Shown here one piece after another: positions 9,508 to 57,452 of a stretch of DNA of 64,000 bases. Made by a program: the position numbers and the translations under genes. Where the stretch lies: positions 32,001-96,000 of IMG/VR virus record IMGVR_UViG_3300020159_002019; one strand, 5' to 3'. The notes under the pieces are model-generated. The model did not search any database. It was not told the origin of the DNA and was given only the letters and a program-made list of their open reading frames with translations. The stretch comes from a virus. The first letter of the stretch is position 1. Every line of letters begins with the position of its first letter.

Positions 9508-10615
9508 ATTCAGAATCAATACTATTTACAACTTCTGATGTGATTTCAATTTCACCATCATCACTACCTAATTTACTCAATAGATAATCTTTATTCTTAC
9601 TTTTATAGTCATCTAAATCAGCGTAAGTGATAAATCCGTGAGGTGTTGAAATAATCTTACCTAATAATTGGATACCATTAATTTGATTTTTTACAACTTC
9701 AATTTTAGTTCCAATAGCGAATGAATATTCTCTTTTATTACTTGTAGCTTTTAATCTTTCAGTTCCGTGAGCTTGAATACCCCCAAAGTGTAAAATCAAT
9801 CTTGCTCCGTAGAAGAAAGCTTCACCACCTTTATGTTTTACAACACCAGCACCCATACTATCAATCCAAATCTTTTGAACCGCAATCATAGTATTTGTGA
9901 AAGGTTTTCCTTCTTTTCTTGATGCGGGTATTCTATGATTTACAAGTGACTTAAATGCCGCTTCCAACGCTCCTGCGTTCCACATATTATTTCTATTTTT
10001 AGAAGTAACACATTGTTCGCAATCTAAAGTTCCAATTGAATCCCAAGCGAATAATATTTCATATGGTAATTCACCATCAATTTGTTTATCTAATAAATCG
10101 TGACAGAAATCAGCAACATCTTCAATTACAGCTTCTTGTCTATTTTTATCTCTTTTCTTACCGTAGTTATCAATTAGATATTCGTTATTTATAAAGATAA
10201 AAAATCCATCATAATTTACAACTTCACCAGTTTCTTTATCAACAACTTCGTCAAATTGTAATCCCATATCTTTAGCATGTTCCCAACTAAAATTGTTTTC
10301 AGTATCAATAATAACTGGAAGAATACCTAATTTTTGTGATGAAACAATAGCTTCCATTAAAGATGTAGATTTACCTGTATTAGAAAATCCTCTTGATAAT
10401 GTAATGTATCCTTTTGGAATACCAGCTAAACCTGTTGCTTCTGTAAATGCTTTAGAAATAGGAATCCAATCTAATTCTTTATCCTTAACATCTTCATTGA
10501 AGCCATTTTTATTCTTAAAATCTTTTAACTTAGATAAGTCAATTGATTTCTTATCAACTATTTTAGGTTTTACAGTTGATTTCCCTTCTTCTTTTTTTGT
10601 TGTTTTACCCGCCAT
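9506..10615 (-). CDS. uvsX: RecA/UvsX-like recombinase
   Basis: Walker A GFSNTGKS, IDTE, Walker B FAWDSIG, KGGEA, KNQ motifs. Confidence 0.9.
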   Translation of the reverse strand: MAGKTTKKEEGKSTVKPKIVDKKSIDLSKLKDFKNKNGFNEDVKDKELDWIPISKAFTEATGLAGIPKGYITLSRGFSNTGKSTSLMEAIVSSQKLGILPVIIDTENNFSWEHAKDMGLQFDEVVDKETGEVVNYDGFFIFINNEYLIDNYGKKRDKNRQEAVIEDVADFCHDLLDKQIDGELPYEILFAWDSIGTLDCEQCVTSKNRNNMWNAGALEAAFKSLVNHRIPASRKEGKPFTNTMIAVQKIWIDSMGAGVVKHKGGEAFFYGARLILHFGGIQAHGTERLKATSNKREYSFAIGTKIEVVKNQINGIQLLGKIISTPHGFITYADLDDYKSKNKDYLLSKLGSDDGEIEITSEVVNSIDSE

Positions 10616-10790
10616 TTTCTAATTCATCTATTTTTTCTTCTAATTTATTTACCTTAGATTCTAATTCTAAAGTATAATCTTCCATTTCCCATAACTCAGA
10701 TTCCATTCTTGATAAGAAATCCATACAATTTTCTTTATTAAAAGTTTCGTTAGATAATTCTTCTCTTAATAATTCAATCAATTCGTTCAT
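10605..10790 (-). CDS. small coiled-coil protein
   Basis: Acidic heptad pattern, coupled to neighbouring genes. Confidence 0.55.
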   Translation of the reverse strand: MNELIELLREELSNETFNKENCMDFLSRMESELWEMEDYTLELESKVNKLEEKIDELENGG

Positions 10791-44533: not shown

Positions 44534-45481
44534 ATGGATTATTCACTTATTACAGATTTAGTTGTTTCAATATTTGGAAACATTAAAAAAACTTATCACG
44601 GAAACTCACAAGTAACCGTTGATTGTCCTTTGTGTTCCGCCGATAAAGGTGTTGAATATGATGGGAAAGGAAACCTTGAAATAAACCTTGAACAAGGATT
44701 ATCTCATTGTTGGTCTTGCGAAAGAACACCCGGAACAATTGATGGACTTATTAAAAAGTTCGGAAATAAACCCCAATATAAGACATTTAAAGTTATTGCC
44801 CCTGAATATGATTACCAAATCAATAAAAGAAAATATACTAAAAAAGATAATAACATTACGGAGTTTCCAAAAGAATTTATCCCGTTCTCAACAATAAATA
44901 AAAGAAACTATATCCACCTTCAACCATATAATTACATTATATCGAGAGGTTATACAGATGAATTATTAAAGGAATATAATATAGGGTTTTGTTTAGAAGG
45001 GAAATATAAACAAAGAATAGTAATACCATTATACGATAAGAAAGGTAATATTATTTATTTCTCAACCAGGTCATATACAGGTGCTAAACAAAAATATCTA
45101 AATCCTGATACAGATAAAGATGATTTAATATTTAATGAAAATAGAATTGATTGGGAAAAACCATTATATATTACAGAAGGTGTATTTGATGGATTACCAA
45201 TACCTAACCATTTCTTATTATTAGGGAAATCATTATCGGAGTTTAAATGGAAAACAATATATGATAACGCTAAATCGGATATTGTAATTGCTTTAGATCC
45301 TGACGCTAAAGAACAGACGTATAGAATGTATCAGAAGTTAAATGCTGGTAAATTAAGGAATAAAGTATTTGTATTACAATATACCGATGATAGGGATTTA
45401 GGTAAATTATTTGAAAATAAAAAAGATTTTAACGATACGATATTGAATTACAGATATTTAAGTGAATTTGAAATAATTTAA
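44534..45481 (+). CDS. DNA primase (zinc finger + TOPRIM)
   Basis: CPLC..HCWSC, RIVIP, KYLNP, ITEGVFD, ALDPDA, DLG motifs. Confidence 0.88.
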   Translation: MDYSLITDLVVSIFGNIKKTYHGNSQVTVDCPLCSADKGVEYDGKGNLEINLEQGLSHCWSCERTPGTIDGLIKKFGNKPQYKTFKVIAPEYDYQINKRKYTKKDNNITEFPKEFIPFSTINKRNYIHLQPYNYIISRGYTDELLKEYNIGFCLEGKYKQRIVIPLYDKKGNIIYFSTRSYTGAKQKYLNPDTDKDDLIFNENRIDWEKPLYITEGVFDGLPIPNHFLLLGKSLSEFKWKTIYDNAKSDIVIALDPDAKEQTYRMYQKLNAGKLRNKVFVLQYTDDRDLGKLFENKKDFNDTILNYRYLSEFEII

Positions 45482-45581
45482 TTTAAAAAACATTTGGAAG
45501 TATAAAAAATTATATTACCTTTGTGGTATGAAAAATTAATTACATATTTAATGGTAATTATTTAAAAAAAATAAAAAAAAG

Positions 45582-45612
45582 TTTGACAATTAAAAAAAAA
45601 GTAGTATCTTTG
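45582..45612 (+). promoter_or_regulatory. Bacteroidetes sigmaA-type promoter of tRNA array 1
   Basis: TTTG-N19-TATCTTTG. Confidence 0.75.
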
Positions 45613-45658
45613 TATCACAAATAAGAAAAACATACTATTTATTAGTAAGAAAATATAT

Positions 45659-45731
45659 CGTGGAGTAGTAGCAGTGGTAGCTCGCAAGGCTCATAACCTT
45701 GAGGTCGGTGGTTCGAATCCATCCTCCGCAA
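45659..45731 (+). tRNA. tRNA-fMet(CAT)
   Basis: Cloverleaf with CAAGG-CTCATAA-CCTTG arm and C1:A72 mismatch. Confidence 0.85.
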
Positions 45732-45769
45732 CAATTTAAAAAAAGTAAAACAATTAAAAAAAAAAGATT

Positions 45770-45847
45770 ATGACAACAATTATTAACATATTTGAATTTA
45801 ACGTGATTGAGGATAGAAGCCTCGGTTTGGGATATCTTTGTGTCTAA
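45770..45847 (+). CDS. leader peptide of attenuator 1 (MTTIINIFEFNVIEDRSLGLGYLCV)
   Basis: 25-aa ORF rich in I/F/E/D codons, overlapping the antiterminator strand. Confidence 0.75.
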   Translation: MTTIINIFEFNVIEDRSLGLGYLCV

Positions 45848-45870
45848 TAATGTGTAGTTAGAATGAATTA

Positions 45871-45905
45871 AAAGAAACCCAAACCTAATAAGTTTGGGTT
45901 TTTTT
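45871..45905 (+). terminator. attenuator terminator 1
   Basis: AAACCCAAAC/GTTTGGGTTT stem plus U tract; 5' arm also pairs with GGTTTGGG at 45824-45831. Confidence 0.8.
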
Positions 45906-45930
45906 GTTTTATATTGTTATTTGAAAATAC

Positions 45931-46006
45931 GGTTCATAGGTCAAATGGTTAAGATATCTCCCTGTCACGGAGTATGGAGCGGGTTCGATTCCCGTATGAA
46001 CCGCCA
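45931..46006 (+). tRNA. tRNA-Asp(GTC)
   Basis: CTCC-CTGTCAC-GGAG arm; encoded CCA. Confidence 0.9.
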
Positions 46007-46012
46007 AAATAG

Positions 46013-46089
46013 GGTATCAGGGGCTGCTGGGTGTGGCTACTTGACTGTCACTCAAGAAAAACAGGTGGGTTCGAATCCCATTGGTACCG
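46013..46089 (+). tRNA. tRNA-Asp(GTC), second divergent copy
   Basis: CTTGA-CTGTCAC-TCAAG arm; canonical T arm. Confidence 0.8.
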
Positions 46090-46100
46090 CAAAAATAAAT

Positions 46101-46174
46101 GTTCCGTTGGACAAATTGGTTAAGTCGTTTCCCTTTCAAGGAAAAGATTGCGGGTTCAAATCCCGTACGGAATA
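46101..46174 (+). tRNA. tRNA-Glu(TTC)
   Basis: TTTCC-CTTTCAA-GGAAA arm. Confidence 0.88.
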
Positions 46175-46181
46175 CAAAAAT

Positions 46182-46254
46182 GGGTTTATAGTGAAATTGG
46201 TGATCACGCATCCCTGATAAGGATGTATTATAGGTTCAAATCCTATTAGACCTA
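46182..46254 (+). tRNA. tRNA-Ile(GAT)
   Basis: CATCC-CTGATAA-GGATG arm. Confidence 0.88.
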
Positions 46255-46260
46255 CAATAT

Positions 46261-46333
46261 GGTGCAGTGGCAGATAAGGTTATTGCGGCGGACTGAAAAT
46301 CCGTAGGAGTCGGATCGTTACCGACCTGCACCA
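46261..46333 (+). tRNA. tRNA-Phe(GAA)
   Basis: GCGGA-CTGAAAA-TCCGT arm; variant T loop ATCGTTA. Confidence 0.85.
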
Positions 46334-46342
46334 CAATAATAT

Positions 46343-46416
46343 ACTACCATAGCTCAATTGGTGAGAGCAGGATGCTTATACCATCAAGGTTGTCGGTTCA
46401 AATCCGGTTGGTAGTA
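46343..46416 (+). tRNA. tRNA-Ile(TAT)
   Basis: GATG-CTTATAC-CATC arm; canonical D and T arms. Confidence 0.82.
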
Positions 46417-46421
46417 CAAAT

Positions 46422-46492
46422 GGGATAAAAGCACATAAGGATGTGCAGACCCTAAACAGGGTAAGGATTGGGTTCGAATCCCAGATATTCCA
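46422..46492 (+). tRNA. tRNA-like gene with aberrant anticodon arm (undetermined)
   Basis: Acceptor, D and T arms present; anticodon arm ACCCT-AAAC-AGGGT lacks a 7-nt loop. Confidence 0.6.
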
Positions 46493-46545
46493 CAAAAAAA
46501 TTAAAAAAAGTTTGGAAATAATAAAAAAAGGAGTATCTTTGTAGT

Positions 46546-47403
46546 ATGGCAAAAATAGAAACATTAAAAGCAAAATTCCCTAATATAACCGAACAAACAT
46601 TTATTCGTTTATTTGAGGGTGACAAGACATCTACTAAAAAGTATGCTGAATTTTTACTTTCCGCTTGGAATAGAAAAGGGACAAATTATGGTGGTTTAAG
46701 GGGTGTTGATGACTATATTAAATTGGTTGAGAATTTTGAGAAATTAACCCCTTATATTGATAATAAGGATATATACTCTTATGGAGATATTCAATCAATA
46801 GTTGGTGTTGTTAAAATAGCTGAAGCCGAAAAAAATGAAAAATCTTTTGATAAAGATGAACACATTTCAGTTATTGAAGAAACTGAAGATTATATCTTTT
46901 TGATACCTAAAACACACGTTGGTTCATTAAAATATGGTTCTAATACTAAATGGTGCACAGCGGCATCAACAAGTCCTGGAACTTTTAAATCATATATTGA
47001 TAGAGGTTTTTTAGCTTATTTAGTTGATAAGAAAAATAAAAAGACGAATAATCAAAATAAATTGGCTTTTTATTTTACAAATAAAGAAAACTTACTTACA
47101 CAAGTAATCCAAATCTTTAATCAATTAGATTCACTTGTAAATGAAAACCAAGTAATACAGAGTGGTTGGGATATTATGTTATTGAGTAATCTTATAACTA
47201 AATTGAGGGTTTTCTTATTTGAGTTTAAGGAGAAAGAAAAAGTTAGGGTTGAAGTATCTAAAACAATTCAACAATTGAATCAAATCAATTACGATAACTT
47301 CTTTAATGCTTTAAATACGTTAAAGATAAATCCTGAGAATGTTGAAGAATTGAAAAACGCTTTAGGGTTAGTTAAAACTTCAATGAAAAAAATCAAAGTA
47401 TGA
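46546..47403 (+). CDS. hypothetical protein, YGxxxKWCT family
   Basis: KYGSNTKWCTA motif; sigmaA-type promoter at 46511-46541 directly upstream. Confidence 0.65.
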   Translation: MAKIETLKAKFPNITEQTFIRLFEGDKTSTKKYAEFLLSAWNRKGTNYGGLRGVDDYIKLVENFEKLTPYIDNKDIYSYGDIQSIVGVVKIAEAEKNEKSFDKDEHISVIEETEDYIFLIPKTHVGSLKYGSNTKWCTAASTSPGTFKSYIDRGFLAYLVDKKNKKTNNQNKLAFYFTNKENLLTQVIQIFNQLDSLVNENQVIQSGWDIMLLSNLITKLRVFLFEFKEKEKVRVEVSKTIQQLNQINYDNFFNALNTLKINPENVEELKNALGLVKTSMKKIKV

Positions 47404-47750
47404 GGAGTGTAAAACAAATCAAAAAGTTAAGATATACTAATGATTGGGTGTCAAATGTTGATGATTCAAATATAACTTATCGTCTTTTTACTTATAATGG
47501 TTTAACTTGGAATGTTATTTTAACTAACCGACAAGAATTAGGTGGTTGGACAATAAGGTTATGTAATAATGATGGTGATGAATTATACATTTTTAATTCA
47601 GGTGTGAATAGAATGTCCATATCAATAAATGACGATTTAATTTACGAATTAGATGGTTGGTATTATGAAAATATAACTGAATTGAAGAATAGGTTAGAAA
47701 ACGATTTAATCGTATTATTAAGGAAATATGAGGAGTATATCAAAAATTAG
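47400..47750 (+). CDS. hypothetical protein
   Basis: Coupled ORF. Confidence 0.55.
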   Translation: MRSVKQIKKLRYTNDWVSNVDDSNITYRLFTYNGLTWNVILTNRQELGGWTIRLCNNDGDELYIFNSGVNRMSISINDDLIYELDGWYYENITELKNRLENDLIVLLRKYEEYIKN

Positions 47751-48060
47751 GGTAAGTGTAAAACAAGATTTTCAAGAATGGTTGGAAAAAACTACCATTA
47801 GTAGATGGATGCCAAGACATAGAATAATATGTAATGATGGGTTTTCTATGTCAGTTCAGGGTGGTGAGTTTACATATTCAAACCCAAGACAATTTGGTAG
47901 TAGTTTTACTGAAATGGAGATTGGGTTTCCTTCTGAGTATGAAGAATTGATTAGTAGTTATTCTGACTCTAATGAATATACTCAAACTGTTTATCCATAT
48001 GTCCCAGTAAGTTTAATTATTGAAGTGATTGAAAAACACGGAGGAATAAAAAAAGATTAG
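47728..48060 (+). CDS. hypothetical phage protein
   Basis: ICNDGFSMSVQG..YSNPR..EIGFPS..VYPYVP. Confidence 0.65.
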   Translation: MRSISKIRVSVKQDFQEWLEKTTISRWMPRHRIICNDGFSMSVQGGEFTYSNPRQFGSSFTEMEIGFPSEYEELISSYSDSNEYTQTVYPYVPVSLIIEVIEKHGGIKKD

Positions 48061-48077
48061 AAAAAAATAAAAAAAGA

Positions 48078-48108
48078 TTTGACAAGTTAAAAAAAAATGT
48101 TATCTTTG
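48078..48108 (+). promoter_or_regulatory. Bacteroidetes sigmaA-type promoter of tRNA array 2
   Basis: TTTG-N19-TATCTTTG. Confidence 0.75.
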
Positions 48109-48187
48109 TATAACAAATGGGATATGAAAATATTTTTTAGATTTCCTTGACAAAAACAAAAAAACAAACTATTTATAAATTAAAGAT

Positions 48188-48298
48188 ATGAAAAACACGA
48201 ATAAAAATATGACTATGGTTGTGAAAGCAACGGCAAAAGGTGGGAATAGAAATACCACACTTGGTTTAGGGCGTGTTATGTCTTTAATGGATAGATAA
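48188..48298 (+). CDS. leader peptide of attenuator 2 (MKNTNKNMTMVVKATAKGGNRNTTLGLGRVMSLMDR)
   Basis: 36-aa ORF; the first 24 codons encode only M/K/N/T/V/A/G/R. Confidence 0.8.
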   Translation: MKNTNKNMTMVVKATAKGGNRNTTLGLGRVMSLMDR

Positions 48299-48322
48299 TA
48301 CAATAATATAAAAAGATATATT

Positions 48323-48359
48323 AAAAACCCTGAACCATAAAAAAGTTCAGGGTTTTTTT
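48323..48359 (+). terminator. attenuator terminator 2
   Basis: AAAAACCCTGAAC/GTTCAGGGTTTTT stem; 5' arm also pairs with TGGTTTAGGG at 48262-48271. Confidence 0.8.
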
Positions 48360-48367
48360 ATTTATAA

Positions 48368-48439
48368 TCCAGATTAGTTTAATTGGGAAAACACGTCTCT
48401 TGTAAAGATGAAAAGTTGGTTCGAATCCGACATTTGGAT
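48368..48439 (+). tRNA. tRNA-Thr(TGT)
   Basis: CGTCT-CTTGTAA-AGATG arm. Confidence 0.85.
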
Positions 48440-48545
48440 CAAAGAAAATAGTAAAAAATTAATTAAAAATATGAAACGAAAACAGTAGGGTGTATGATCA
48501 ATTAGGAATAGGTTGCATACACTAAAAATTAAAAAAAATGTATAT

Positions 48546-48633
48546 GCACCTATGGCTTAATTGGTAGAGCAACCGGCTTTTAACCGGTGGGGTAGACGAA
48601 AGTCCGTTGAAGGTTCGAGTCCTTCTGGGTGCA
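48546..48633 (+). tRNA. tRNA-Lys(TTT) with long variable arm
   Basis: ACCGG-CTTTTAA-CCGGT arm; extra GAC-GAAA-GTC hairpin. Confidence 0.85.
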
Positions 48634-48639
48634 CAATTT

Positions 48640-48712
48640 ACTTTCGTAGCTTAATTGGTAAAGAAACTAACTCTTAATTAGTGTGATGTGAGTTCGAGTC
48701 TCACTGGAAGTA
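48640..48712 (+). tRNA. tRNA-Lys(CTT)
   Basis: ACTAA-CTCTTAA-TTAGT arm. Confidence 0.82.
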
Positions 48713-48739
48713 CTAAATGTTATTTGAAATATTATAAAT

Positions 48740-48812
48740 TGGGATGTAACTCAGAGGCTAGAGTGTTTGCCTGTTAAGCAAAAAGTCGAGATATCGTAAT
48801 TCTCCATCCCAG
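48740..48812 (+). tRNA. tRNA-Asn(GTT)
   Basis: TTTGC-CTGTTAA-GCAAA arm; variant T loop. Confidence 0.8.
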
Positions 48813-48873
48813 CAAAAATTGAAAGATAAACGTATGAAACAAAGGAATGTAGTGGTTTATTAAGTAAATATAT

Positions 48874-48945
48874 GGCTCTATCGTTTAACGCATAAGACAT
48901 TTCTCTTCTAAAGAAAGAATAGGGGTTGGATTCCCTTTAGAGCCA
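48874..48945 (+). tRNA. tRNA-Arg(TCT)
   Basis: TTTCT-CTTCTAA-AGAAA arm. Confidence 0.8.
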
Positions 48946-48952
48946 CAGCAAT

Positions 48953-48977
48953 CCAAGTTCGATTCTTGGTGGGAGTA
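48953..48977 (+). pseudogene. tRNA 3' fragment (T arm + acceptor 3' strand)
   Basis: CCAAG-TTCGATT-CTTGG-TGGGAGT-A with no 5' half. Confidence 0.6.
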
Positions 48978-48986
48978 CAAAAAAAT

Positions 48987-49057
48987 ACCTTCTTAGTTAA
49001 ATGGGAGAATATCTGTTTTACATACAGAAGATAACTGTTCGATTCAGTTAGGGGGTA
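48987..49057 (+). tRNA. tRNA-Val(TAC)
   Basis: TCTGT-TTTACAT-ACAGA arm. Confidence 0.82.
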
Positions 49058-49109
49058 CAAAAAAAGATTTGATTTTTTAAAAAAAATTATTATCTTTAAA
49101 AAACAATAT

Positions 49110-49182
49110 GGGGTTATGGTATAGTTGGCGAACACAGTAGCTTTGCAAGCTTCAGTCCCGAGTTCAAATCTCGGTAGCTCCA
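49110..49182 (+). tRNA. tRNA-Ala(TGC)
   Basis: TTTGCAA anticodon loop; G3:U70 pair. Confidence 0.88.
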
Positions 49183-49185
49183 CAA

Positions 49186-49255
49186 TGTTTCACTTAGAAT
49201 AAAAACAAACGCTTAATAGCAACAAACTCTTAATTTGTCAATTATTAGTGAAACA
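49186..49255 (+). ncRNA. Y-RNA-like stem element A with a Lys(CTT) anticodon-stem-loop mimic
   Basis: TGTTTCACT/AGTGAAACA closing stem, CACTTAGAATAA motif, internal ACAAA-CTCTTAA-TTTGT. Confidence 0.55.
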
Positions 49256-49258
49256 AAT

Positions 49259-49329
49259 GTCGATATAGTTAAATGGGATAACACCCCTCTCATCAAGGGA
49301 AGTTATTGGTTCGAATCCAGTTATCGATA
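49259..49329 (+). tRNA. tRNA-Met(CAT), elongator (Ile2 not excluded)
   Basis: CCCT-CTCATCA-AGGG arm; paired 1:72. Confidence 0.78.
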
Positions 49330-49340
49330 CCCTGAAATAA

Positions 49341-49417
49341 TATTTCACTTAGAATAAAAAACTATTTGAATTTATCCTCCAATGGAGGGTGTATTTAATC
49401 CAATTAATAGTGAAATA
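49341..49417 (+). ncRNA. Y-RNA-like stem element B
   Basis: TATTTCACT/AGTGAAATA closing stem with the same CACTTAGAATAAAAA and CAATTAxTAGTGAAA ends as element A. Confidence 0.55.
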
Positions 49418-49420
49418 AAT

Positions 49421-49493
49421 GCGGGTGTAGCTCAATTGGTAGAGCGCGACCTTGCCAAGGTCGAGGCTGTGGGATCGTACCCCATCACCCGCT
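49421..49493 (+). tRNA. tRNA-Gly(GCC)
   Basis: CGACC-TTGCCAA-GGTCG arm. Confidence 0.9.
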
Positions 49494-49496
49494 CAT

Positions 49497-49703
49497 TGAG
49501 TAAGAGGTACTCAGTAGTCTTTAATCCAAGACTCATTTAACAATGGATTCGCTTAAATCGGACAGCGAAAATGCCGGTTCTTAGGAATAAGGAGCGAAGC
49601 ACACCTCCCCTTCGTAGTGTGACTATTTTTAATGGGGATGCCCTTCAGGTTTTTGGAAAGAAGAAAACCGAAATGACTACTCACCTAAATCTCAAGGTGG
49701 GGT
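49497..49703 (+). ncRNA. unidentified ~200-nt structured RNA with two potential pseudoknots
   Basis: Series of hairpins with loop-to-downstream complementarity; GC richer than flanks; lies between two Gly tRNAs. Confidence 0.55.
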
Positions 49704-49709
49704 AAACAA

Positions 49710-49781
49710 GCGAGTATCGTATAATGGCTATTATACCACGCTTCCAACGTGGGGATGTGATTTCGATTATCACTACTCGCT
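49710..49781 (+). tRNA. tRNA-Gly(TCC)
   Basis: CCACG-CTTCCAA-CGTGG arm. Confidence 0.85.
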
Positions 49782-49794
49782 CCGGACGTTTTAG

Positions 49795-49832
49795 AAATCA
49801 GTAATATTTTTTTGGTATTACTGATTTTTTTT
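49795..49832 (+). terminator. terminator ending tRNA array 2 (overlaps the yqeY promoter)
   Basis: AAATCAGTAATA/TATTACTGATTT stem plus T tract; TACCTTTG at 49835. Confidence 0.7.
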
Positions 49833-49858
49833 ATTACCTTTGTAGAAATAATAAAATT

Positions 49859-50308
49859 ATGACACTTAAAGAACAAATTCAAAAAGACTTCATCACGGCT
49901 ATGAAAAATAAAGATGAATGGACTAAATCCGCTCTAAGTGGGTTAAAATCAAAGATTACTGAAGCTGAAAAAGTTAATGGAACAGAATTATCAGACGCTG
50001 ATATTCTTAAACTAATTAATAAAGGTATTAAACAAAGGGAAGAATCTGCTACTATATATAGTGAAGCAGGTCGTCCGGAATTAGCTGCGAAAGAATTACT
50101 TGAACTTAATGTTTTAATGGATTATATGCCAGCTCAAATGACTGATGAGGAAATTGAAACGGCTGTAAGGGAAATTATTGTTGGATTACCTACAATGACA
50201 AACGCAAATGCCTTGTCAGGAAAAACTATGGGTGAATTCAATAAAAAGTATCAAGGAATGGCTGATTCTAAAAGAGTTTCAGAAATTATAAAAAAAGTTG
50301 TATCATAA
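49859..50308 (+). CDS. yqeY: GatB/YqeY domain protein
   Basis: LKEQIQKDFITAMKNKD..KQREESATIYSEAGRPELA..YMPAQM. Confidence 0.9.
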   Translation: MTLKEQIQKDFITAMKNKDEWTKSALSGLKSKITEAEKVNGTELSDADILKLINKGIKQREESATIYSEAGRPELAAKELLELNVLMDYMPAQMTDEEIETAVREIIVGLPTMTNANALSGKTMGEFNKKYQGMADSKRVSEIIKKVVS

Positions 50309-50352
50309 TTTGACTTTCAATAAACAATAAACTATAATTAAAAAACAAAAAT

Positions 50353-50463
50353 GGGGGGTAATTTTTTAGTGGATTGAAAATACCACTTAGAATAACTCTA
50401 AACTATATTGGTAAAAGTTTGACTAATAATCAAATATAGAAGGTTCGAACCCTTCACCCCCCG
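50353..50463 (+). ncRNA. tRNA-like RNA with expanded anticodon loop (YrlA-like, or intron-containing tRNA-Leu(TAG))
   Basis: GGGGGGT/ACCCCCC acceptor, GAAGG-TTCGAAC-CCTTC T arm, variable hairpin, TACCA-[CTTAGAATAACTCTAAACTATAT]-TGGTA. Confidence 0.6.
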
Positions 50464-50493
50464 CAATTATTAACAATATAAAACATAAAGTAT

Positions 50494-52332
50494 ATGACAG
50501 AATTAGTAAAAGAAAAAATGAAGTTATCTAACACATTAGATACATTACAATTTTTAAGAACCGCTAAAGGTGCTTCAGATGAAAAAATTCATTTGGCTTT
50601 AGATAAAGCCTATGCTGAAACAACATCTAATGGAGTTGAGGAAATGTTATATAGAATTATGTTTCATATTGGAGATATTTCAAGAAAGCATAATATCTTT
50701 AAAGAATTTGAAATCAACTCAGAAGTGGGTGGGGCTCAAGAAAGAAAGATATTTAGATCTTGTGTAAGATGGATGCAAAAGAACACCCCAGAGTTCTTGC
50801 ATAACAACTTAAAGTTAGTAGTTGAATATACTTCATACGAAACTTTAATGTATTACCAAGTAAGCACAAACAGATATTTGGGTAATGTTATGGGTGTTGA
50901 AAAACTATTCATTGACAACCAATATTTGTTCCCTTTCTTAAAGTCTGAGATTGAATCAGGTGTAAACTTGAACTTAATCGCAAGACACTTACCTAAATAT
51001 GCTACAGGTAAGCAAAGAACAACTAAAAAGACTTTAGTTGGTAAAAGGGGAAGAACTGAATTCAGTTGGACATTACCGAAAGGTAAGACTTGGGTTAAAA
51101 TCAATGGAAACCTTGTAAATGGTGATAAAATCACGGTTAAGCATGGTGATGTTGCTGAATACCCAAGAGAAAAGAAATCTGAGTCTTTAACAAGACAAAG
51201 TTTCTTAAACAAGTGGATTAAGGATTTCTGTGATTATATGAAATGGACAATCGCTGATTACAAAGCATTTAAGGGTAAGCAGAATACTGCTGAACAAAAA
51301 ATGTCAAGTGGTTCAGTAATGTCTATGACAGAAGATCAATTTAATGGTTTCTTGGATTCTTTGACTGCGGGACAAAGAAAAAGGGTTGTAAAATCATTGG
51401 GTAATCCTAAATGGGGACAGCTAACTAAATGGTATAAGGCTTGGGAAGATGACCAATCTAACTTAGCTGAAAAAATTAGAAAAGCTACCACACCTGCTGA
51501 AAAAGCCGCTTTGATGAAAGATTTCAAAGTTAAAACAACAGGGGATCAAACAATTGATTTGTTGGCTGAAATGCTTGGTAAGGGTTTAAATGCTCAACAA
51601 GTAAATAACAACTATCAATCAATGATTGAGAGAATGAACATTAAACATTCAGTATTTCCAATTATTGACGGTTCGGGTTCTATGGATAGTACTTTTGACC
51701 ATAACGGTGTAGGAATATCTAACAGACAAGTAGCATACGCAATGGCAATTGCATTTACTACAATGAATCCAAACCCAAGATTTAGAAATACTTATGGTTG
51801 GTTCTCAAACGACTTTAAGGTTTTTGGTAGGTCTGAGTATGGTGATACCTATATATCTATGTTTAAGAATGTGGATAAGTATGTAAGTCATACAAAGACT
51901 TTTACTGAGAATTACAGATTACTTATGGAGACAGATCCAAAAGAAATTACATCTACAAATATGTTTGCTTCGGTAGAATATTTTGTAAATCTTGTGAAAA
52001 CAGGAAGATGTACTATGGAAGAATTACCTGAAACATTACTTTATCTTACAGATAATGAGTATAATTCAGGTAAATCACCAAAAGAAGCGGTTACTTTAGC
52101 CAATTCAATTGGATGGAGACCAAAGTTAATTTTTTGGGGTATTACCACAATGACTCATTCTATTAAGGAAGAGTTAAAATATACTCCGAATGGTTTATTC
52201 ATCGGTGGTTTCAACGAAAGTTGTTTATCACAAATCTTGGATGGAATCTCAAAAGATTCAATAAATCCAGAAGATGAATTGTGGGCTATTTATAACGATA
52301 TTCGTTATAGTGTAATTAAAGTAGGTGAATAA
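50494..52332 (+). CDS. Ro60/TROVE-like (DUF2828-type) protein with C-terminal vWA domain
   Basis: Helical N-terminal region with GAQERKIFR; MIDAS motif IIDGSGSM; STNM, LTDNEY, LIFWG. Confidence 0.7.
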   Translation: MTELVKEKMKLSNTLDTLQFLRTAKGASDEKIHLALDKAYAETTSNGVEEMLYRIMFHIGDISRKHNIFKEFEINSEVGGAQERKIFRSCVRWMQKNTPEFLHNNLKLVVEYTSYETLMYYQVSTNRYLGNVMGVEKLFIDNQYLFPFLKSEIESGVNLNLIARHLPKYATGKQRTTKKTLVGKRGRTEFSWTLPKGKTWVKINGNLVNGDKITVKHGDVAEYPREKKSESLTRQSFLNKWIKDFCDYMKWTIADYKAFKGKQNTAEQKMSSGSVMSMTEDQFNGFLDSLTAGQRKRVVKSLGNPKWGQLTKWYKAWEDDQSNLAEKIRKATTPAEKAALMKDFKVKTTGDQTIDLLAEMLGKGLNAQQVNNNYQSMIERMNIKHSVFPIIDGSGSMDSTFDHNGVGISNRQVAYAMAIAFTTMNPNPRFRNTYGWFSNDFKVFGRSEYGDTYISMFKNVDKYVSHTKTFTENYRLLMETDPKEITSTNMFASVEYFVNLVKTGRCTMEELPETLLYLTDNEYNSGKSPKEAVTLANSIGWRPKLIFWGITTMTHSIKEELKYTPNGLFIGGFNESCLSQILDGISKDSINPEDELWAIYNDIRYSVIKVGE

Positions 52333-52342
52333 CCTACTTTTT

Positions 52343-52561
52343 TTATGCCTTTATTTTAACCACAACCTCACCTTCATTATTAGTGGTTAGATAATATTCT
52401 TTTTTGTTTGTAAATCCATATTTTTTAGATATGTTTGATTCTATCCTTTTTTTGGTTGATGGTGTGTTAGCAAATGTAATATGTGGTTGAACATATTCAT
52501 CTTTGAATTGTTCCATTTTATTTACCGTTTCTTTAATAATTCTCTTAATTAAATTTTTCAT
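52343..52561 (-). CDS. small virion-type protein
   Basis: MKNLIKRIIKE N-terminal motif; TATTTAT upstream on the minus strand. Confidence 0.55.
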   Translation of the reverse strand: MKNLIKRIIKETVNKMEQFKDEYVQPHITFANTPSTKKRIESNISKKYGFTNKKEYYLTTNNEGEVVVKIKA

Positions 52562-52628
52562 ATAAATAAATATTTGGTTTTATGAAAACTATTATTTATA
52601 TTTGTATTGTAATTAAAAAATAAAATAT

Positions 52629-53294
52629 ATGTATAATAACAAAACAGATTTTAACAAATTCGCAACATCGCATATGGGTATATCGTCTTTATACCTCGAT
52701 GATCTTCAATCGTCAATGACACCTCACATCTTAGAAGAAAGACCGACAAGAGCAAATCTTATGTCAGTATTTGATAGATTGATGCAAGATAGGATTATTT
52801 GGGTTGCCGGTGCGGTTGATGAGGGTATGTCACAAGTTATTCAAGCGCAATTGATTTACTTGTCAAACTCAGACCCTAAGAAAGAAATTACGATGCACAT
52901 TGACACTCCTGGTGGTTCAGTAAAGGCTGGATTATCAATCGTGGATGTAATGGATTATGTTAAACCTGACATTAGAACAATCAATACAGGTATGGCGGCA
53001 TCAATGGGTTCAGTATTGTTAGGCGCTGGAACCAAAGGAAAAAGAATGTCTTTAAGATTTTCACAAACAATGCTACACCAATCTTCAGGTGGTGTGAGAG
53101 GAAATATTCAGGATGCTAGGATAACAATGATTGAATGGGAAAAAATAAATGATTTGTTATTTAATTTGTTAGGTGGGTATTGTGGTAAGGATGCTATCCA
53201 AGTAAAAGAAGATGCTTCTCGTGATTTATGGTTAAGTTCTGAAGAAGCGTTGGCTTATGGGATAATTGACGAAATAATCAAACCAAAAAAATAA
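52629..53294 (+). CDS. clpP: ATP-dependent Clp protease proteolytic subunit
   Basis: DRIIW, TPGGSV, GMAASMG (Ser), MLHQ (His), RDLWL (Asp), YGIID. Confidence 0.95.
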   Translation: MYNNKTDFNKFATSHMGISSLYLDDLQSSMTPHILEERPTRANLMSVFDRLMQDRIIWVAGAVDEGMSQVIQAQLIYLSNSDPKKEITMHIDTPGGSVKAGLSIVDVMDYVKPDIRTINTGMAASMGSVLLGAGTKGKRMSLRFSQTMLHQSSGGVRGNIQDARITMIEWEKINDLLFNLLGGYCGKDAIQVKEDASRDLWLSSEEALAYGIIDEIIKPKK

Positions 53295-53305
53295 TTAAAA
53301 AAAAG

Positions 53306-53336
53306 TTTGACAATTAGAAAAAAAATATTATCTTTG
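53306..53336 (+). promoter_or_regulatory. Bacteroidetes sigmaA-type promoter of tRNA array 3
   Basis: TTTG-N19-TATCTTTG. Confidence 0.75.
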
Positions 53337-53411
53337 TATTATAAATGGGATGTGAAAAATATTTTTCACATTTCCATAACAAAAACAAAAAAACAAACTA
53401 TTTAATATAAA

Positions 53412-53546
53412 ATGAAAACATTAATTAACATATCATTATCGTCATTGTATCTATTACAGTCGCTATGCCAAAGTTGTGTTTCGGTATTACCGTTACATCA
53501 GTATTGGTTAGTGCTAGGATTTAGTGCGGTGGGTATGTTAAGTTGA
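53412..53546 (+). CDS. leader peptide of attenuator 3 (MKTLINISLSSLYLLQSLCQSCVSVLPLHQYWLVLGFSAVGMLS)
   Basis: 44-aa ORF; 24 of codons 8-33 encode S/L/Y/Q/C/P/H/W. Confidence 0.8.
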   Translation: MKTLINISLSSLYLLQSLCQSCVSVLPLHQYWLVLGFSAVGMLS

Positions 53547-53568
53547 TAAGACAATAATATACCTTATT

Positions 53569-53610
53569 AAACCCCCTAAATCCGTATAAATGAGATTTAG
53601 GGGGTTTTTT
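53569..53610 (+). terminator. attenuator terminator 3
   Basis: AAACCCCCTAAATC/GATTTAGGGGGTTT stem plus U tract; 5' arm also pairs with GGATTTAG at 53517-53524. Confidence 0.8.
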
Positions 53611-53644
53611 ATTTTAGTTATTTGACATATTGTATTAGAAATAT

Positions 53645-53717
53645 CAGGGTGTATATCAATTGGGAGATTACTCCATTTGGATTGGAGAGGTTGTAGGTTC
53701 GAGTCCTATCACCCTGA
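53645..53717 (+). tRNA. tRNA-Pro(TGG)
   Basis: CTCCA-TTTGGAT-TGGAG arm. Confidence 0.85.
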
Positions 53718-53724
53718 CAAATAT

Positions 53725-53795
53725 TCCCCTTTCGTCTAACGGCAGGACAGATGGTTTTGAGCTATCGAATCGAGGTTCGAATCCTTGAGGGGGAA
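53725..53795 (+). tRNA. tRNA-Gln(TTG)
   Basis: GATGG-TTTTGAG-CTATC arm; U1:A72. Confidence 0.85.
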
Positions 53796-53847
53796 CCGGT
53801 TTGGGTTTTACACTTTTAAACTTACGAGATAAGGAAAAAGTGAAATT

Positions 53848-53918
53848 GGGATGATGCCGAGAGTGGTCAGACGGTCTGTAAAACCGAACTGCATAGTGTT
53901 TGAGTCACTTCCATCCCA
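53848..53918 (+). tRNA. tRNA-Tyr(GTA), atypical (short variable region)
   Basis: CGGT-CTGTAAA-ACCG arm; divergent D and T arms. Confidence 0.65.
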
Positions 53919-53928
53919 CAAAATAAAC

Positions 53929-54002
53929 GTAAGTGTAGTGAACAATGGCTAACACGTTCGGTTCCAACCCGAAAGATGTGGGTTCGACCCCTACCACTTG
54001 CG
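53929..54002 (+). tRNA. tRNA-Trp(CCA)
   Basis: TTCGG-TTCCAAC-CCGAA arm; G73. Confidence 0.85.
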
Positions 54003-54009
54003 CAAATAA

Positions 54010-54104
54010 GGAGAGGTGCTAGAGATGGATTATTGGGCTAGTCTTGAAAACTAGAGATCGTCAGTGATGGGGATCCGTGGGTTCGAATCCCACTCTCTCC
54101 TCCA
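54010..54104 (+). tRNA. tRNA-Ser(TGA)
   Basis: CTAGT-CTTGAAA-ACTAG arm, long variable arm, encoded CCA. Confidence 0.88.
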
Positions 54105-54109
54105 AATAT

Positions 54110-54188
54110 GGGTTTGTTGGTGTTAATTGGATGAGCATTTACGATTGTGGCTCGTAAGGTGAGGGGTTCGAATCCCCCATAAACCCCA
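54110..54188 (+). tRNA. tRNA-His(GTG)
   Basis: TACGA-TTGTGGC-TCGTA arm; G-1:C73. Confidence 0.85.
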
Positions 54189-54268
54189 AAAGTAAGGAAT
54201 TAGGTTATTATACGTAGGCTCCGAGTGTAATAACTGAAATTTAGATCCTTATGAACTTCGGTCCGCAG

Positions 54269-54356
54269 GGAGAATTGACAGAGTGGTAATGTATCGGTTT
54301 GCTAATCCGTAGTCTATGTAAAAGTAGCGGGGGCTCGAATCCCTCATTCTCCGCCA
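54269..54356 (+). tRNA. tRNA-Ser(GCT)
   Basis: TTGCTAA loop, long variable arm, encoded CCA. Confidence 0.82.
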
Positions 54357-54365
54357 AAAATAAAT

Positions 54366-54454
54366 GCTTCTGTGGCGAAATTGGTAGCACGCGATGGACT
54401 TAAAATCCATTGGGAAATAACAGTACCGTGTCGGTTCGATTCCGACCAGAAGTA
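54366..54454 (+). tRNA. tRNA-Leu(TAA)
   Basis: ATGGA-CTTAAAA-TCCAT arm, long variable arm. Confidence 0.88.
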
Positions 54455-54461
54455 CAAACAT

Positions 54462-54547
54462 ACCCCAATGTTGGAATGTAGACAACCTAGTTTTAGAAAC
54501 TAGTGTGAAGTAATAGTAGCGTCTGGGTTCAAATCCCAGTTGGGGTA
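54462..54547 (+). tRNA. tRNA-Leu(TAG)
   Basis: CTAGT-TTTAGAA-ACTAG arm. Confidence 0.82.
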
Positions 54548-54553
54548 CAAAAT

Positions 54554-54641
54554 GGGAATGTGGTGTGAGTGGTTGAAACCGGGGGTCTGCAAAACCCCAA
54601 AAACGAAAGTTTTCACGTCAGTTCGAATCTGATCATTCCCT
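54554..54641 (+). tRNA. tRNA-Cys(GCA) with long variable arm
   Basis: GGGGT-CTGCAAA-ACCCC arm; U73; extra AAAAC-GAAA-GTTTT hairpin. Confidence 0.82.
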
Positions 54642-54650
54642 CAATTACAT

Positions 54651-54723
54651 GACCCCATAGTTCAATGGATTAGAATACTTGAATACGGATCAGGAGATGA
54701 GAGTTCAAATCTTTCTGGGGTTA
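54651..54723 (+). tRNA. tRNA-Arg(ACG)
   Basis: CTTGA-ATACGGA-TCAGG arm. Confidence 0.8.
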
Positions 54724-54726
54724 CAA

Positions 54727-54755
54727 AAAGAAAACCATTTTTATATGGTTTTTTT
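54727..54755 (+). terminator. terminator ending tRNA array 3
   Basis: AAAACCAT/ATGGTTTT stem plus T tract. Confidence 0.65.
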
Positions 54756-54779
54756 TATGCCATTACATATTTATTACAT

Positions 54780-57452
54780 ATGATTATTATTGAAGGAAAA
54801 TTAGAAGATTTATCTAAGAAATATATACCGAAGTTTAATAGGGATTCATTTACTGAAGGTTTAACCCCTGAATCTGTTATTGAGCATTTATATGTTTCAG
54901 ATCCATCACCAACAAAGAAATACTTTGAGTGGATGATTAAAGAATGTTTGGGATTGATAGAACGTAATTATGTTATTAACAATGAAAAAATAGCTAAACT
55001 TGTAACGGATATCCAAGAATTTGATAGAAATATTGATAAACTTAGTCAGGATTTTTTAGATTATAATAAAGAAGAAATTGGTGAAATTGCGTATAAGTTT
55101 TTAAATGGTAAGGCTTTAAAAGATATTGGTACATATAATTACGATATTTTAAGAAAAATAATACCTTCATTGGTAGAATATAAGACAGAAAGTCAAAGAA
55201 GAAGATTGGCTAAAGAAGGTGCTAAAATTATATTTCAAGATGAAAAATATGATGTTTATGAAATAGATACTTATGACGCTTCTTGTTTTTATGGTCAAGG
55301 TTCTAAATGGTGTACAACTTATAAACAAAGTGATTCACATTTTAAATCATATGGTACTGGTAGGAATAAATTATTATATGTTATTAGTAAAACTAAGACA
55401 AAAGAAACTGATCCTCAATTTTATAAGATTGCTATAAATATAAGGTATGTTGATGAACAAATAACATTTTGGGATGCTCCTGATAATAGTTTTAATGGTT
55501 GGAAATATTTTAGGGAACAAGATCCAAATATTTTAACTTTTTTGATTTCTTATATTAAAGAAAAGAATCCTGAAGGATATCTTAAAATGATACCTGAAAA
55601 CTATTTAATAACGATTAAACAAGAAGAAGAAGGTTTAAGTGATTTAAATATTATTTCGGTTTTAGATGTTGATAAATCTAGTGATTGGTTAAGTCATAAA
55701 TATGGGTTAAATGGTGTGGATACTATTATTAAAAAATTGGATATATTACAAGGTAATGTCAGTAATTTTTTAGGTGATTATTTTACCAGTGATGAAAAAG
55801 AGTATTTAATCATAAAAAGAAGTGAGAAATTAGAACCAAGAGGTTTGTCGTGGAAAGATTTAGTTAAAAGTTATCACCAATTAGCAATTACTCTAGATAG
55901 CTATCAACCAAGTTGGTTTATTGATAATTTTTTAGGTGGGGATAAAAACAAAGCGTTAGAAATTGGGACAAAAGAACCGATAGTACTATATTGGTTGGCT
56001 AGAGGTAGTGTTAATATAAAGGATTTGGGTGATTTATATGGAGCTGAAAAACTTGTTAAATATATTACTAAAAGTAAAGTTAAAGTTATTTTTGGGTTAA
56101 GTGATATATTGGGTGGTTTATTTACAAATGAAACTCCAAAGAAAAGAAAGGAGTTATATGAAATTGCTTATAAGTATGATGGCAAAAAAAGGAATATTGA
56201 ATTAGTCGATTATTTGTCTAGACGTATGGGTAAAGAGGGATTCATTGCGTCATTTAATAAAGGTGATGGATATGGAATTGAACCTGATTCATATGGAAGA
56301 GCATTTTTATATGTTAAAAATAATAACCCTGATTTAATAAGTAATGTATTTAACATTGAGGATATTAGTAAAATCTTCAAGTCAAACGAAAAAGCGTTTA
56401 CTTATTTATTAAAAAATTATGATGAATTTACACGTAATTTAGATATTAGTGATTTAACTGAAATGTTTAGTGGTGATGTTCCTGATAGTATATATGGTAA
56501 ATATATGAGTGATTGGGAAAAGAGGAATGTTGCGTCAATATATAGAATGAAAAATGGTTCTGAAAAACTATTTGATTTTGTTCTTAAAAAGTTTTCTTTT
56601 AAAAAGTTAGCCGATATCATCGGATATGATGGAGTATTTCAATTATTTTCTATTGTTAAGTTTAAAAAAGGTATAAACTATATGATTGAAAATAAGGTTG
56701 GCGATATCGCTATTGATGATATAAAAATAAAAGATGGTAAGGTGGTATTGGTTGTTAATGATAGAACGGATTATGCGTTTTTATTTGATGATGAAGATTT
56801 GGCTAAAACTATATTGGGTGAAGATATGGATTGGGAACCGTATAACGATACTATTTATAATTGGTATGATCAAGTATGGGATTGTATGGTACCAAAATCA
56901 ATTGAACTGGTTAAGTCTTGGATTAAAAGTAATATAACAGATTATGAGAATGATGAAGGTGAAAAAATTGATTTAGGTGATACATATTTAAATGAAATAG
57001 ATGATGATGATTTGGGTAAAATAATAGATGAGTACGATGAATTTAGGGATTTAAAAAATGAGATGAGTTGGGCTTATGATAATGGTTATAATTCTGTTGC
57101 TCAAAGTGATATTATTAGTAAAACACAAGATCAATTAGAAGAATATTTAGGTAGTTATATAGGGTATGAACCAGTTAAAAAGAATGGTCGTAGATATAAT
57201 AAAGAAACAGGTAATTCTGAATCATACGAATATACAGCATATGAATACTTATATAATGTGGGTGATGGTTTATATGATATATTATATGATTATGCAACTA
57301 CTAATTGGGGTCATTCGGTTGATTACAACACATATTTTAGCACTTTATTAAAGGATTCTGACCCTAAAAAGTTATATATTGATACTGAGGCTTATCCAGA
57401 CGATAAAGAAATTTGTGAGTATTTTAATGATGATTTACCGGAAAGAATATGA
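54780..57452 (+). CDS. large hypothetical protein, YGxxxKWCT family
   Basis: DPSPTKKYFEWM and FYGQGSKWCTT motifs; acidic C-terminal region. Confidence 0.65.
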   Translation: MIIIEGKLEDLSKKYIPKFNRDSFTEGLTPESVIEHLYVSDPSPTKKYFEWMIKECLGLIERNYVINNEKIAKLVTDIQEFDRNIDKLSQDFLDYNKEEIGEIAYKFLNGKALKDIGTYNYDILRKIIPSLVEYKTESQRRRLAKEGAKIIFQDEKYDVYEIDTYDASCFYGQGSKWCTTYKQSDSHFKSYGTGRNKLLYVISKTKTKETDPQFYKIAINIRYVDEQITFWDAPDNSFNGWKYFREQDPNILTFLISYIKEKNPEGYLKMIPENYLITIKQEEEGLSDLNIISVLDVDKSSDWLSHKYGLNGVDTIIKKLDILQGNVSNFLGDYFTSDEKEYLIIKRSEKLEPRGLSWKDLVKSYHQLAITLDSYQPSWFIDNFLGGDKNKALEIGTKEPIVLYWLARGSVNIKDLGDLYGAEKLVKYITKSKVKVIFGLSDILGGLFTNETPKKRKELYEIAYKYDGKKRNIELVDYLSRRMGKEGFIASFNKGDGYGIEPDSYGRAFLYVKNNNPDLISNVFNIEDISKIFKSNEKAFTYLLKNYDEFTRNLDISDLTEMFSGDVPDSIYGKYMSDWEKRNVASIYRMKNGSEKLFDFVLKKFSFKKLADIIGYDGVFQLFSIVKFKKGINYMIENKVGDIAIDDIKIKDGKVVLVVNDRTDYAFLFDDEDLAKTILGEDMDWEPYNDTIYNWYDQVWDCMVPKSIELVKSWIKSNITDYENDEGEKIDLGDTYLNEIDDDDLGKIIDEYDEFRDLKNEMSWAYDNGYNSVAQSDIISKTQDQLEEYLGSYIGYEPVKKNGRRYNKETGNSESYEYTAYEYLYNVGDGLYDILYDYATTNWGHSVDYNTYFSTLLKDSDPKKLYIDTEAYPDDKEICEYFNDDLPERI

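Follow-up and report, generated by a model that had tools for sequence, protein, structure and literature searches.

Short leader reading frames as probable attenuators of three tRNA arrays in a phage genome

Why should a phage place a short ORF (open reading frame) and an intrinsic terminator ahead of each of its transfer RNA (tRNA) arrays? This question is raised by positions 45,582 to 54,723 of a stretch of viral DNA of 64,000 nucleotides (nt), namely positions 32,001 to 96,000 of the IMG/VR record IMGVR_UViG_3300020159_002019. The whole stretch is called the window here and its numbering is used throughout. The genome is a single contig of 109,290 base pairs (bp) with 29% G+C, and the sequencing runs holding the stretch are freshwater and lake metagenomes. 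A first-pass annotation, made from the letters alone, had spoken of a jumbo phage, a label that is not borne out at 109 kb. It had also proposed that ribosomes translating short leader peptides decide about the transcription of the tRNA genes, as they do in the classical attenuators of amino-acid operons. Every in-silico test suggested by that annotation supports this logic, and we consider it likely that the locus contains three ribosome-mediated (leader-peptide) transcription attenuators, one per tRNA array. The in-silico support covers the anatomy of the units, the codon match, the alternative pairings that depend on the position of the ribosome, and the evolutionary pattern.

Units, leaders and the predicted RNA switch

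ARAGORN detects 27 tRNA genes, all on the plus strand between 45659 and 54724, and none elsewhere in the genome. With the exception of one tRNA-Met (see below) they are grouped in three arrays found with ARAGORN and Rfam. Array 1 (45931-46417) comprises Asp, Asp, Glu, Ile(GAT), Phe and Ile(TAT). Array 2 (48368-49783) consists of Thr, Lys(TTT), Lys(CTT), Asn, Arg(TCT), Val, Ala, Met, Gly(GCC) and Gly(TCC), and array 3 (53645-54724) of Pro, Gln, a weak Tyr(GTA), Trp, Ser(TGA), His, Ser(GCT), Leu(TAA), Leu(TAG), Cys and Arg(ACG). The Tyr(GTA) slot at 53848-53919 is occupied by a candidate that ARAGORN calls at a relaxed threshold only and that Rfam does not call at E<=0.1. The division into three arrays had thus been recognized correctly, and the statement that they serve all 20 amino acids was a slight overstatement. 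In the relative L002 the corresponding slot contains a normal Tyr tRNA.

Each array belongs to one of three paralogous units that show the same order of elements on the plus strand, i.e. promoter, unstructured A-rich stretch, ATG-started short ORF, terminator and tRNA array; apart from the A-rich stretch this is the layout already described in the first-pass annotation. According to motif search the promoters are located at 45583-45612, 48079-48108 and 53307-53336 and have in common TTGACA, a 16-nt A-rich spacer and a Bacteroidota-type TAnnTTTG box. Genome-wide and on both strands the combined motif TTGACA-N16-TAnnTTTG is present at just these three sites. TAnnTTTG boxes precede neighbouring protein genes too and therefore indicate a Bacteroidota host. 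The leader ORFs have the lengths given before, with 25 (45770-45847), 36 (48188-48298) and 44 amino acids (53412-53546). The region just 5' of each leader ATG is unstructured and A-rich, which suits the Shine-Dalgarno-poor initiation of Bacteroidota. A G+C-rich terminator hairpin with T tract is found 23-28 nt 3' of each ORF, at 45871-45905, 48323-48357 and 53570-53610, with energies from -11 to -23 kcal/mol. In the window a TAnnTTTG box is absent both from the spacers that separate terminator and first tRNA and from the arrays themselves, and the start of tRNA-Thr is just 10 nt past the T tract of terminator 2, so that the arrays should depend on readthrough.

The composition of the leaders mirrors that of the arrays. 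Codons 4-15 of leader 1 are rich in I, F, E and D, with both ATT and ATA present. Codons 2-24 of leader 2 encode solely T, K, N, R, V, A, M and G, all eight of which occur, and in leader 3 S, L, Y, Q, C, P, H and W account for 24 of the 26 codons at positions 8-33. We define the sensing part (sensor) of a leader as the region from codon 2 to the codon preceding the antiterminator strand described below. Across the three sensors 57 of 72 residues belong to the respective own array, and none of 200,000 shuffles of the amino-acid labels equals this value (maximum 53). For units 1, 2 and 3 the sensor test gives p = 0.007, <5e-6 and 0.024 against random amino-acid sets of the same size, and 0.009, 8e-9 and 5e-7 against the composition of the proteome. 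When all 417 short ORFs of the genome are compared, none other than the leaders attains the values of leaders 2 and 3. Leader 2 is clearly the strongest match and leader 1 the weakest.

This agreement extends to individual codons. A cognate codon is present in the own leader for 24 of the 26 array anticodons, Lys(CTT) and Arg(ACG) being the missing ones. Thus, ATA represents Ile(TAT), GGT and GGG represent the two Gly tRNAs, TTA/TTG and CTA (the only Leu codons of leader 3) the two Leu tRNAs, and TCN (as TCA and TCG) together with AGT the two Ser tRNAs. By its class the Arg codon likewise fits the Arg tRNA of the array. Leader 2 and the leaders of two further phage contigs (L062 and L018) combine AGA with Arg(TCT), and the codons paired with Arg(ACG) are CGC in unit 3 of L001 and CGT in L133.

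The 3' third of each ORF contains an antiterminator strand of 8-10 nt that is complementary to the 5' arm of the terminator, as the first-pass annotation had noticed. Strand 1 (45824-45831) pairs with 45878-45885 at -14.4 kcal/mol, which was equalled by none of 500 shuffled ORFs, strand 2 (48262-48271) with 48328-48337 at -16.8 kcal/mol (0/500) and strand 3 (53517-53524) with 53576-53583 at -16.4 kcal/mol (12/500). In the fold of unit 2 there is a second antiterminator segment, 48277-48285, that can pair with 48313-48321. The strands differ between the units yet each fits its own terminator, and therefore the pairing covaries among the paralogues.

Folding of both states, which had been proposed as a check, was performed with a model that folds the transcript up to the terminator loop while the footprint of a ribosome is masked at each codon. 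The predicted probability of the antiterminator is ~0.7-0.84 for A-site stalls up to D15 in unit 1, R21 in unit 2 and W32 in unit 3, and it is <=0.1 from S17, T23 and V34, respectively, onward. The switch point is thus found at or near the last matched codon (D15, R21 and W32/L33), and the matched codons therefore run out at almost the same place as the positions where a stall would be productive. The full-length RNA folds into the terminator in all three units. The same position-dependent switch is predicted for the phage contigs L062 and L084.

Leader-array pairs in related and other phage contigs

Homologous units are carried by the contigs L001, L002, L003, L094, L108, L144 and L165. In 13 homologous leader copies the frame is kept with no stop or indel, and this includes the leader of unit 3 in L003, where 20 codons are changed and the sensing residues are reordered with the same composition. 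Among the distinct non-synonymous changes within the sensors 14 of 18 remain within the unit's own set of amino acids (6.4 expected, p = 2.6e-4), and among those in the tail 1 of 11 does (sensor versus tail, Fisher p = 4e-4). One change in the leader of L001, from Cys to Arg(CGC), supplies the codon for Arg(ACG) that is missing from the leader of the window.

Relatives also show rearrangements of the arrays. A natural deletion is found in L002 (9209-9340; the same contig as L144), which has lost leader 2 together with eight tRNAs (T, K, K, N, R, V, A, M) and in which promoter 2 is fused directly ahead of the two Gly tRNAs. Insertions are present in the arrays of L001 (14092-14868), L062 (9749-10285, reverse strand) and L108 (approximately 10240-10765, reverse strand); among them are ORFs whose Cys and His motifs are of the kind usual in HNH homing endonucleases. 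A megablast search of the region against the deposited phage collection returned short tRNA matches only.

Independent instances are provided by contigs in which the tRNAs are grouped differently and the leader matches the respective grouping. The array of L084 comprises P, Q, K, Y, T and G, that of L062/L064 P, N, G, G, D, T, A, L and R, that of L018 N, G, G, D, T, L, R and L, and that of L133 T, Q, S, P, K, Y, N, S, H, R, W and F before the contig ends. A strand complementary to the own terminator is present in L084, L062/L064 and L018. The contig L018 is a homologue of L062 without the Pro and Ala tRNAs, and its leader contains no Pro and one Ala residue versus one Pro and three Ala residues in L062. 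Between these two contigs two positions in the antiterminator strand and its partner have changed, with complementarity preserved; covariation of the stems, another of the suggested checks, is thus seen both between the units of the window and between L062 and L018.

A permutation test of the leader-array pairs had been suggested as well. The true pairing proved to be the best of 5,040 permutations with seven pairs and the best of 720 with the six non-homologous pairs, with the caveat that some of the independent instances had been noticed before they were tested. An objective list comprised 25 short ORFs that are followed by a T tract and a tRNA array; these leaders account for all the lowest p values in it, and wrong-frame ORFs at the same places give p values scattered from 0.2 to 1. 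Candidate leaders in L053, L070, L049 and L058 were left out of the count, as they match in part only and their loci are truncated. Of the 80 loci found via the ClpP gene that neighbours the arrays, most contain scattered tRNAs interleaved with genes and no obvious leader.

Further features of the locus

An initiator-like tRNA-Met(CAT) is encoded at 45659-45732 (plus strand), between promoter 1 and leader 1 and hence outside the attenuator gate. It is probably an initiator tRNA because of its C1-A72 mismatch and, being upstream of leader 1, would be made regardless of the attenuator. A Met tRNA is found in this slot also in L001, L002, L108 and L165. The sequence in L001 (5608-5682) and L002 is clearly unlike that of the window, L108 and L165; the slot is conserved and its occupant has been replaced. 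The corresponding place in unit 3, between promoter and leader, is taken by a 5' hairpin (53345-53377, plus strand; -13.5 kcal/mol, z -4.8), and its counterpart in unit 2 (48119-48146; -3.9 kcal/mol, z 0.1) is no better than shuffles. The tRNA-Met occupies the hairpin slot of unit 1, and L003 has no such hairpin.

Between terminator 3 and tRNA-Pro there is a conserved box of 12 nt (53621-53632) with one copy in the genome; a related box is located near 45914-45922. With at most one mismatch the 12-nt box recurs 10-25 nt before the first tRNAs in L001-L003, L094, L084 and L119 and between two tRNAs in L133. Perhaps it serves as a leader of the pre-tRNA or in processing. Its interpretation as a promoter was rejected, since in L119 the box sits downstream of the promoter and hence is transcribed. 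A cmscan search of 45400-54900 with Rfam at E<=0.1 gave no match to an amino-acid leader family, a T-box or a Y RNA. Besides tRNAs it returned sub-threshold plastid cis-regulatory families that overlap tRNAs or lie on the opposite strand of terminator 3.

Among the tRNA genes themselves tRNA-Lys(TTT) (48546-48634) and tRNA-Cys(GCA) (54554-54642) are unusually long with 89 nt each; tRNA-Lys and tRNA-Cys normally have a short variable arm. The two Gly tRNAs of array 2 are separated by a 215-nt gap (49495-49709) that is not tRNA and has no Rfam match. Array 2 is closed by a terminator-like hairpin with T tract, read from the sequence at 49795-49832 (plus strand).

The genes around the arrays encode a DnaG-type primase (44534-45481), a YqeY-like protein (49859-50308) and a ClpP protease (52629-53294). 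Homologues of the latter with 65-70% identity are found in hundreds of viral contigs, many of which have tRNAs nearby. Between arrays 2 and 3 an ORF of 612 amino acids (50494-52332) has no Pfam match and resembles by tblastn Campylobacter phage proteins annotated as ‘RNA-binding protein’ or as von Willebrand factor A-like (Ro60-like). The gap in array 2 could be the home of a small RNA partner to this Ro60-like protein. Metatranscriptome contigs from four studies cover the gene of the 612-residue protein, and their tRNA-like fragments are mostly from other organisms.

Mechanism, rival explanations and meaning

In the proposed mechanism transcription would begin at the dedicated strong promoter of each unit, and a ribosome would load on the unstructured A-rich 5' region and translate the leader. 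If all codon families served by the array are decoded fast, the ribosome would cover the antiterminator strand, the terminator would form and transcription would stop before the tRNAs. If one of the matching aminoacyl-tRNAs is short, the ribosome would stall at the respective sensing codon and leave the antiterminator strand free for pairing with the terminator's 5' arm; RNA polymerase would then continue into the array that encodes the missing tRNAs. Since a stall at any sensing codon would open the array, such a unit would act as a multi-input OR gate and at the same time as a negative feedback loop on the supply of tRNA. We infer that the leaders are translated and that transcription and translation are coupled. 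The natural trigger could be a mismatch between host and phage codon usage, a loss of host tRNAs in the course of infection or their cleavage by a host defence. In architecture each unit shows those defining features of an attenuator that can be examined in silico, namely a leader ORF, cognate codons, an intrinsic terminator and, in silico, a mutually exclusive antiterminator pairing.

Several observations weigh against this mechanism. The coupling of transcription and translation in the host is an assumption, and the available metatranscriptome contigs cover no leader, so that no conclusion is drawn from them. The match of leader 1 is limited, with just 9 of 17 residues from its own set and six from array 2; the earlier claim that each leader matches its own array stands, whereas the accompanying claim that the leaders largely avoid the amino acids of the other arrays does not apply to leader 1. 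Moreover, the first 2-7 codons of each leader encode amino acids of other arrays. If the whole peptide is compared with random sets, the test is weak for unit 1 (p = 0.04) and unit 3 (p = 0.09) and strong for unit 2, L018, L084 and L062; the test of the sensing part, which is bounded by the antiterminator strand, is better posed than this diluted one. Regarding the switch, the antiterminator strand of unit 2 is located 25-34 nt upstream of the stop codon, and a ribosome at the stop leaves an antiterminator probability of ~0.7. For termination this unit must therefore rely on timing, the second segment or ribosomes that follow behind. A ribosome that has reached the end of its leader covers the antiterminator strand of unit 1 if given a wide footprint, covers that of unit 3 in part and does not cover that of unit 2. 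For units 1 and 3 the antiterminated state is predicted for the free RNA, unlike in trp-type attenuators, where a 1:2 hairpin brings about termination if translation is lacking. Among the other contigs, array 1 of L165 continues into Gly and Ala tRNAs that are not listed by its leader, L133 has no clear antiterminator strand inside the ORF, and L062 and L018 contain a TAnnTTTG box between terminator and tRNAs, so that some relatives may also transcribe their tRNAs independently.

Some of these observations would fit attenuators that depend on translation but sense general translation capacity, the signal being ribosome availability, the timing of infection or host shut-off. In that case the matching codons would be a secondary matter and might, for instance, reflect a tuning of the leaders to the phage tRNAs. 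With a free RNA that is predicted to be antiterminated any failure of translation would open the arrays, one promoter type is common to all three units, and the first codons of each leader are not array-specific. Nevertheless, it would remain unexplained why three disjoint leader compositions mirror three arrays in one genome, why other phages with different groupings have correspondingly different leaders, and why the in-set substitutions are confined to the sensing part. We regard a sensor of general capacity as unlikely. Another arrangement would be that short ORF and terminator form a self-contained small gene or small RNA and that the arrays are transcribed from unrecognised promoters further downstream, of which the 12-nt box is perhaps a part. 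This is suggested by the consensus -7 box that follows the terminator in L062 and L018, by the recurrence of the conserved box at 53621-53632 before the first tRNAs of several contigs, and by L119 and L002, in which the same promoter type drives tRNAs without a leader. In the window, however, there is no TAnnTTTG box after the terminators or in the arrays and the gap of 10 nt in unit 2 leaves no room for a promoter, while the box of L119 is transcribed from the promoter upstream and is not itself one. As both the codon match and the antiterminator pairing are also left unexplained, this arrangement appears quite improbable.

The third explanation is chance or bias, namely accidental open frames in AT-rich spacers beside ordinary terminators. 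An open frame of 25 codons is indeed not rare at 29% G+C, and with the most conservative null the p values of units 1 and 3 are only modest. Against this stand the joint label shuffle without a single equal among 200,000, the isolated position of leaders 2 and 3 among the short ORFs of the genome, the preservation of the frame in 13 copies even where 20 codons have changed, and the independent instances in other phages. Chance is thus hardly credible, and leader-peptide attenuation of the three arrays is the explanation with which the following comparison is made.

To our knowledge the units stand apart from all described attenuators by their tRNA-gene target, by the number of 4-9 amino acids sensed, and by the position of the antiterminator strand inside the ORF. 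A full-text literature search found no account of such control of tRNA genes, in agreement with the first-pass annotation, which knew of none. Phage tRNA genes are usually discussed as constitutive helpers in codon usage or as replacements for cleaved host tRNAs. The attenuator of Escherichia coli pheST demonstrates that a leader peptide can control a component of the translation apparatus and respond to the decoding of the codons of its own amino acid. It controls a synthetase and senses one amino acid, whereas in the phage the product is the tRNA itself, which would provide direct feedback on tRNA supply. T-box riboswitches likewise switch between terminator and antiterminator in response to the status of tRNA, but a T-box binds one uncharged tRNA directly and without an ORF, whereas many codons would be read by a ribosome in the phage units.

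The features of classical leader-peptide attenuators are in part taken from PMC1183508. The enterobacterial representatives, both the multivalent (thr, ilvGMEDA, ilvBN) and the single ones (trp, his, leu, phe), likewise have a translated leader with regulatory codons, a terminator and an antiterminator that depends on stalling, and they likewise read the supply of charged tRNA. They control biosynthetic enzymes, in contrast with the tRNA genes of the phage units. The phage leaders would sense 4-9 amino acids with mostly 1-4 codons each and no long run, and they differ further by the antiterminator strand within the ORF and by the predicted antitermination of the free RNA. Antibiotic-sensing leader ORFs (ermC, cat and the topAI upstream ORF), where a ribosome that stalls in the short ORF upstream changes the structure of the RNA downstream, are known in part from PMC12121999. 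Their stalls depend on the drug and the nascent peptide and not on codon supply, and they mostly regulate translation or the action of Rho. The nearest published case is the trn operon of Anabaena sp. PCC 7120, an accessory tRNA array that is off by default and is switched on by translational stress (PMC8421152). The likeness consists in an inducible tRNA array and the difference in its control by the ribbon-helix-helix repressor TrcR (PMC10272220), which is why this operon was rejected as an instance of the same mechanism. The paper of 2021 on this operon (PMC8421152) makes no mention of an attenuator, leader peptide or terminator.

If the proposed mechanism is true, the translation machinery would measure the supply of its own substrate and order more of it in a direct feedback loop. 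A natural multiplexed sensor would read up to nine amino-acid families in one ORF of 100 nt, and a textbook mechanism would be extended to a new class of target genes and to phages of Bacteroidota. The units would moreover provide small parts, open to design, with which to sense how available a given tRNA is, and a testable rule for the sorting of phage tRNAs into particular arrays. More tentatively, this may be a widespread device in freshwater Bacteroidota phages and beyond, which monitors the usable tRNA pool of the host per codon family and turns on exactly that block of tRNAs which is required when those of the host are lacking, degraded on infection or cut by an anticodon-nuclease defence. 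Should this rather doubtful extension be correct, the phages would possess a self-tuning circuit for both counter-defence and codon adaptation, and the sorting of tRNA genes into arrays would be dictated by the leader that senses them.

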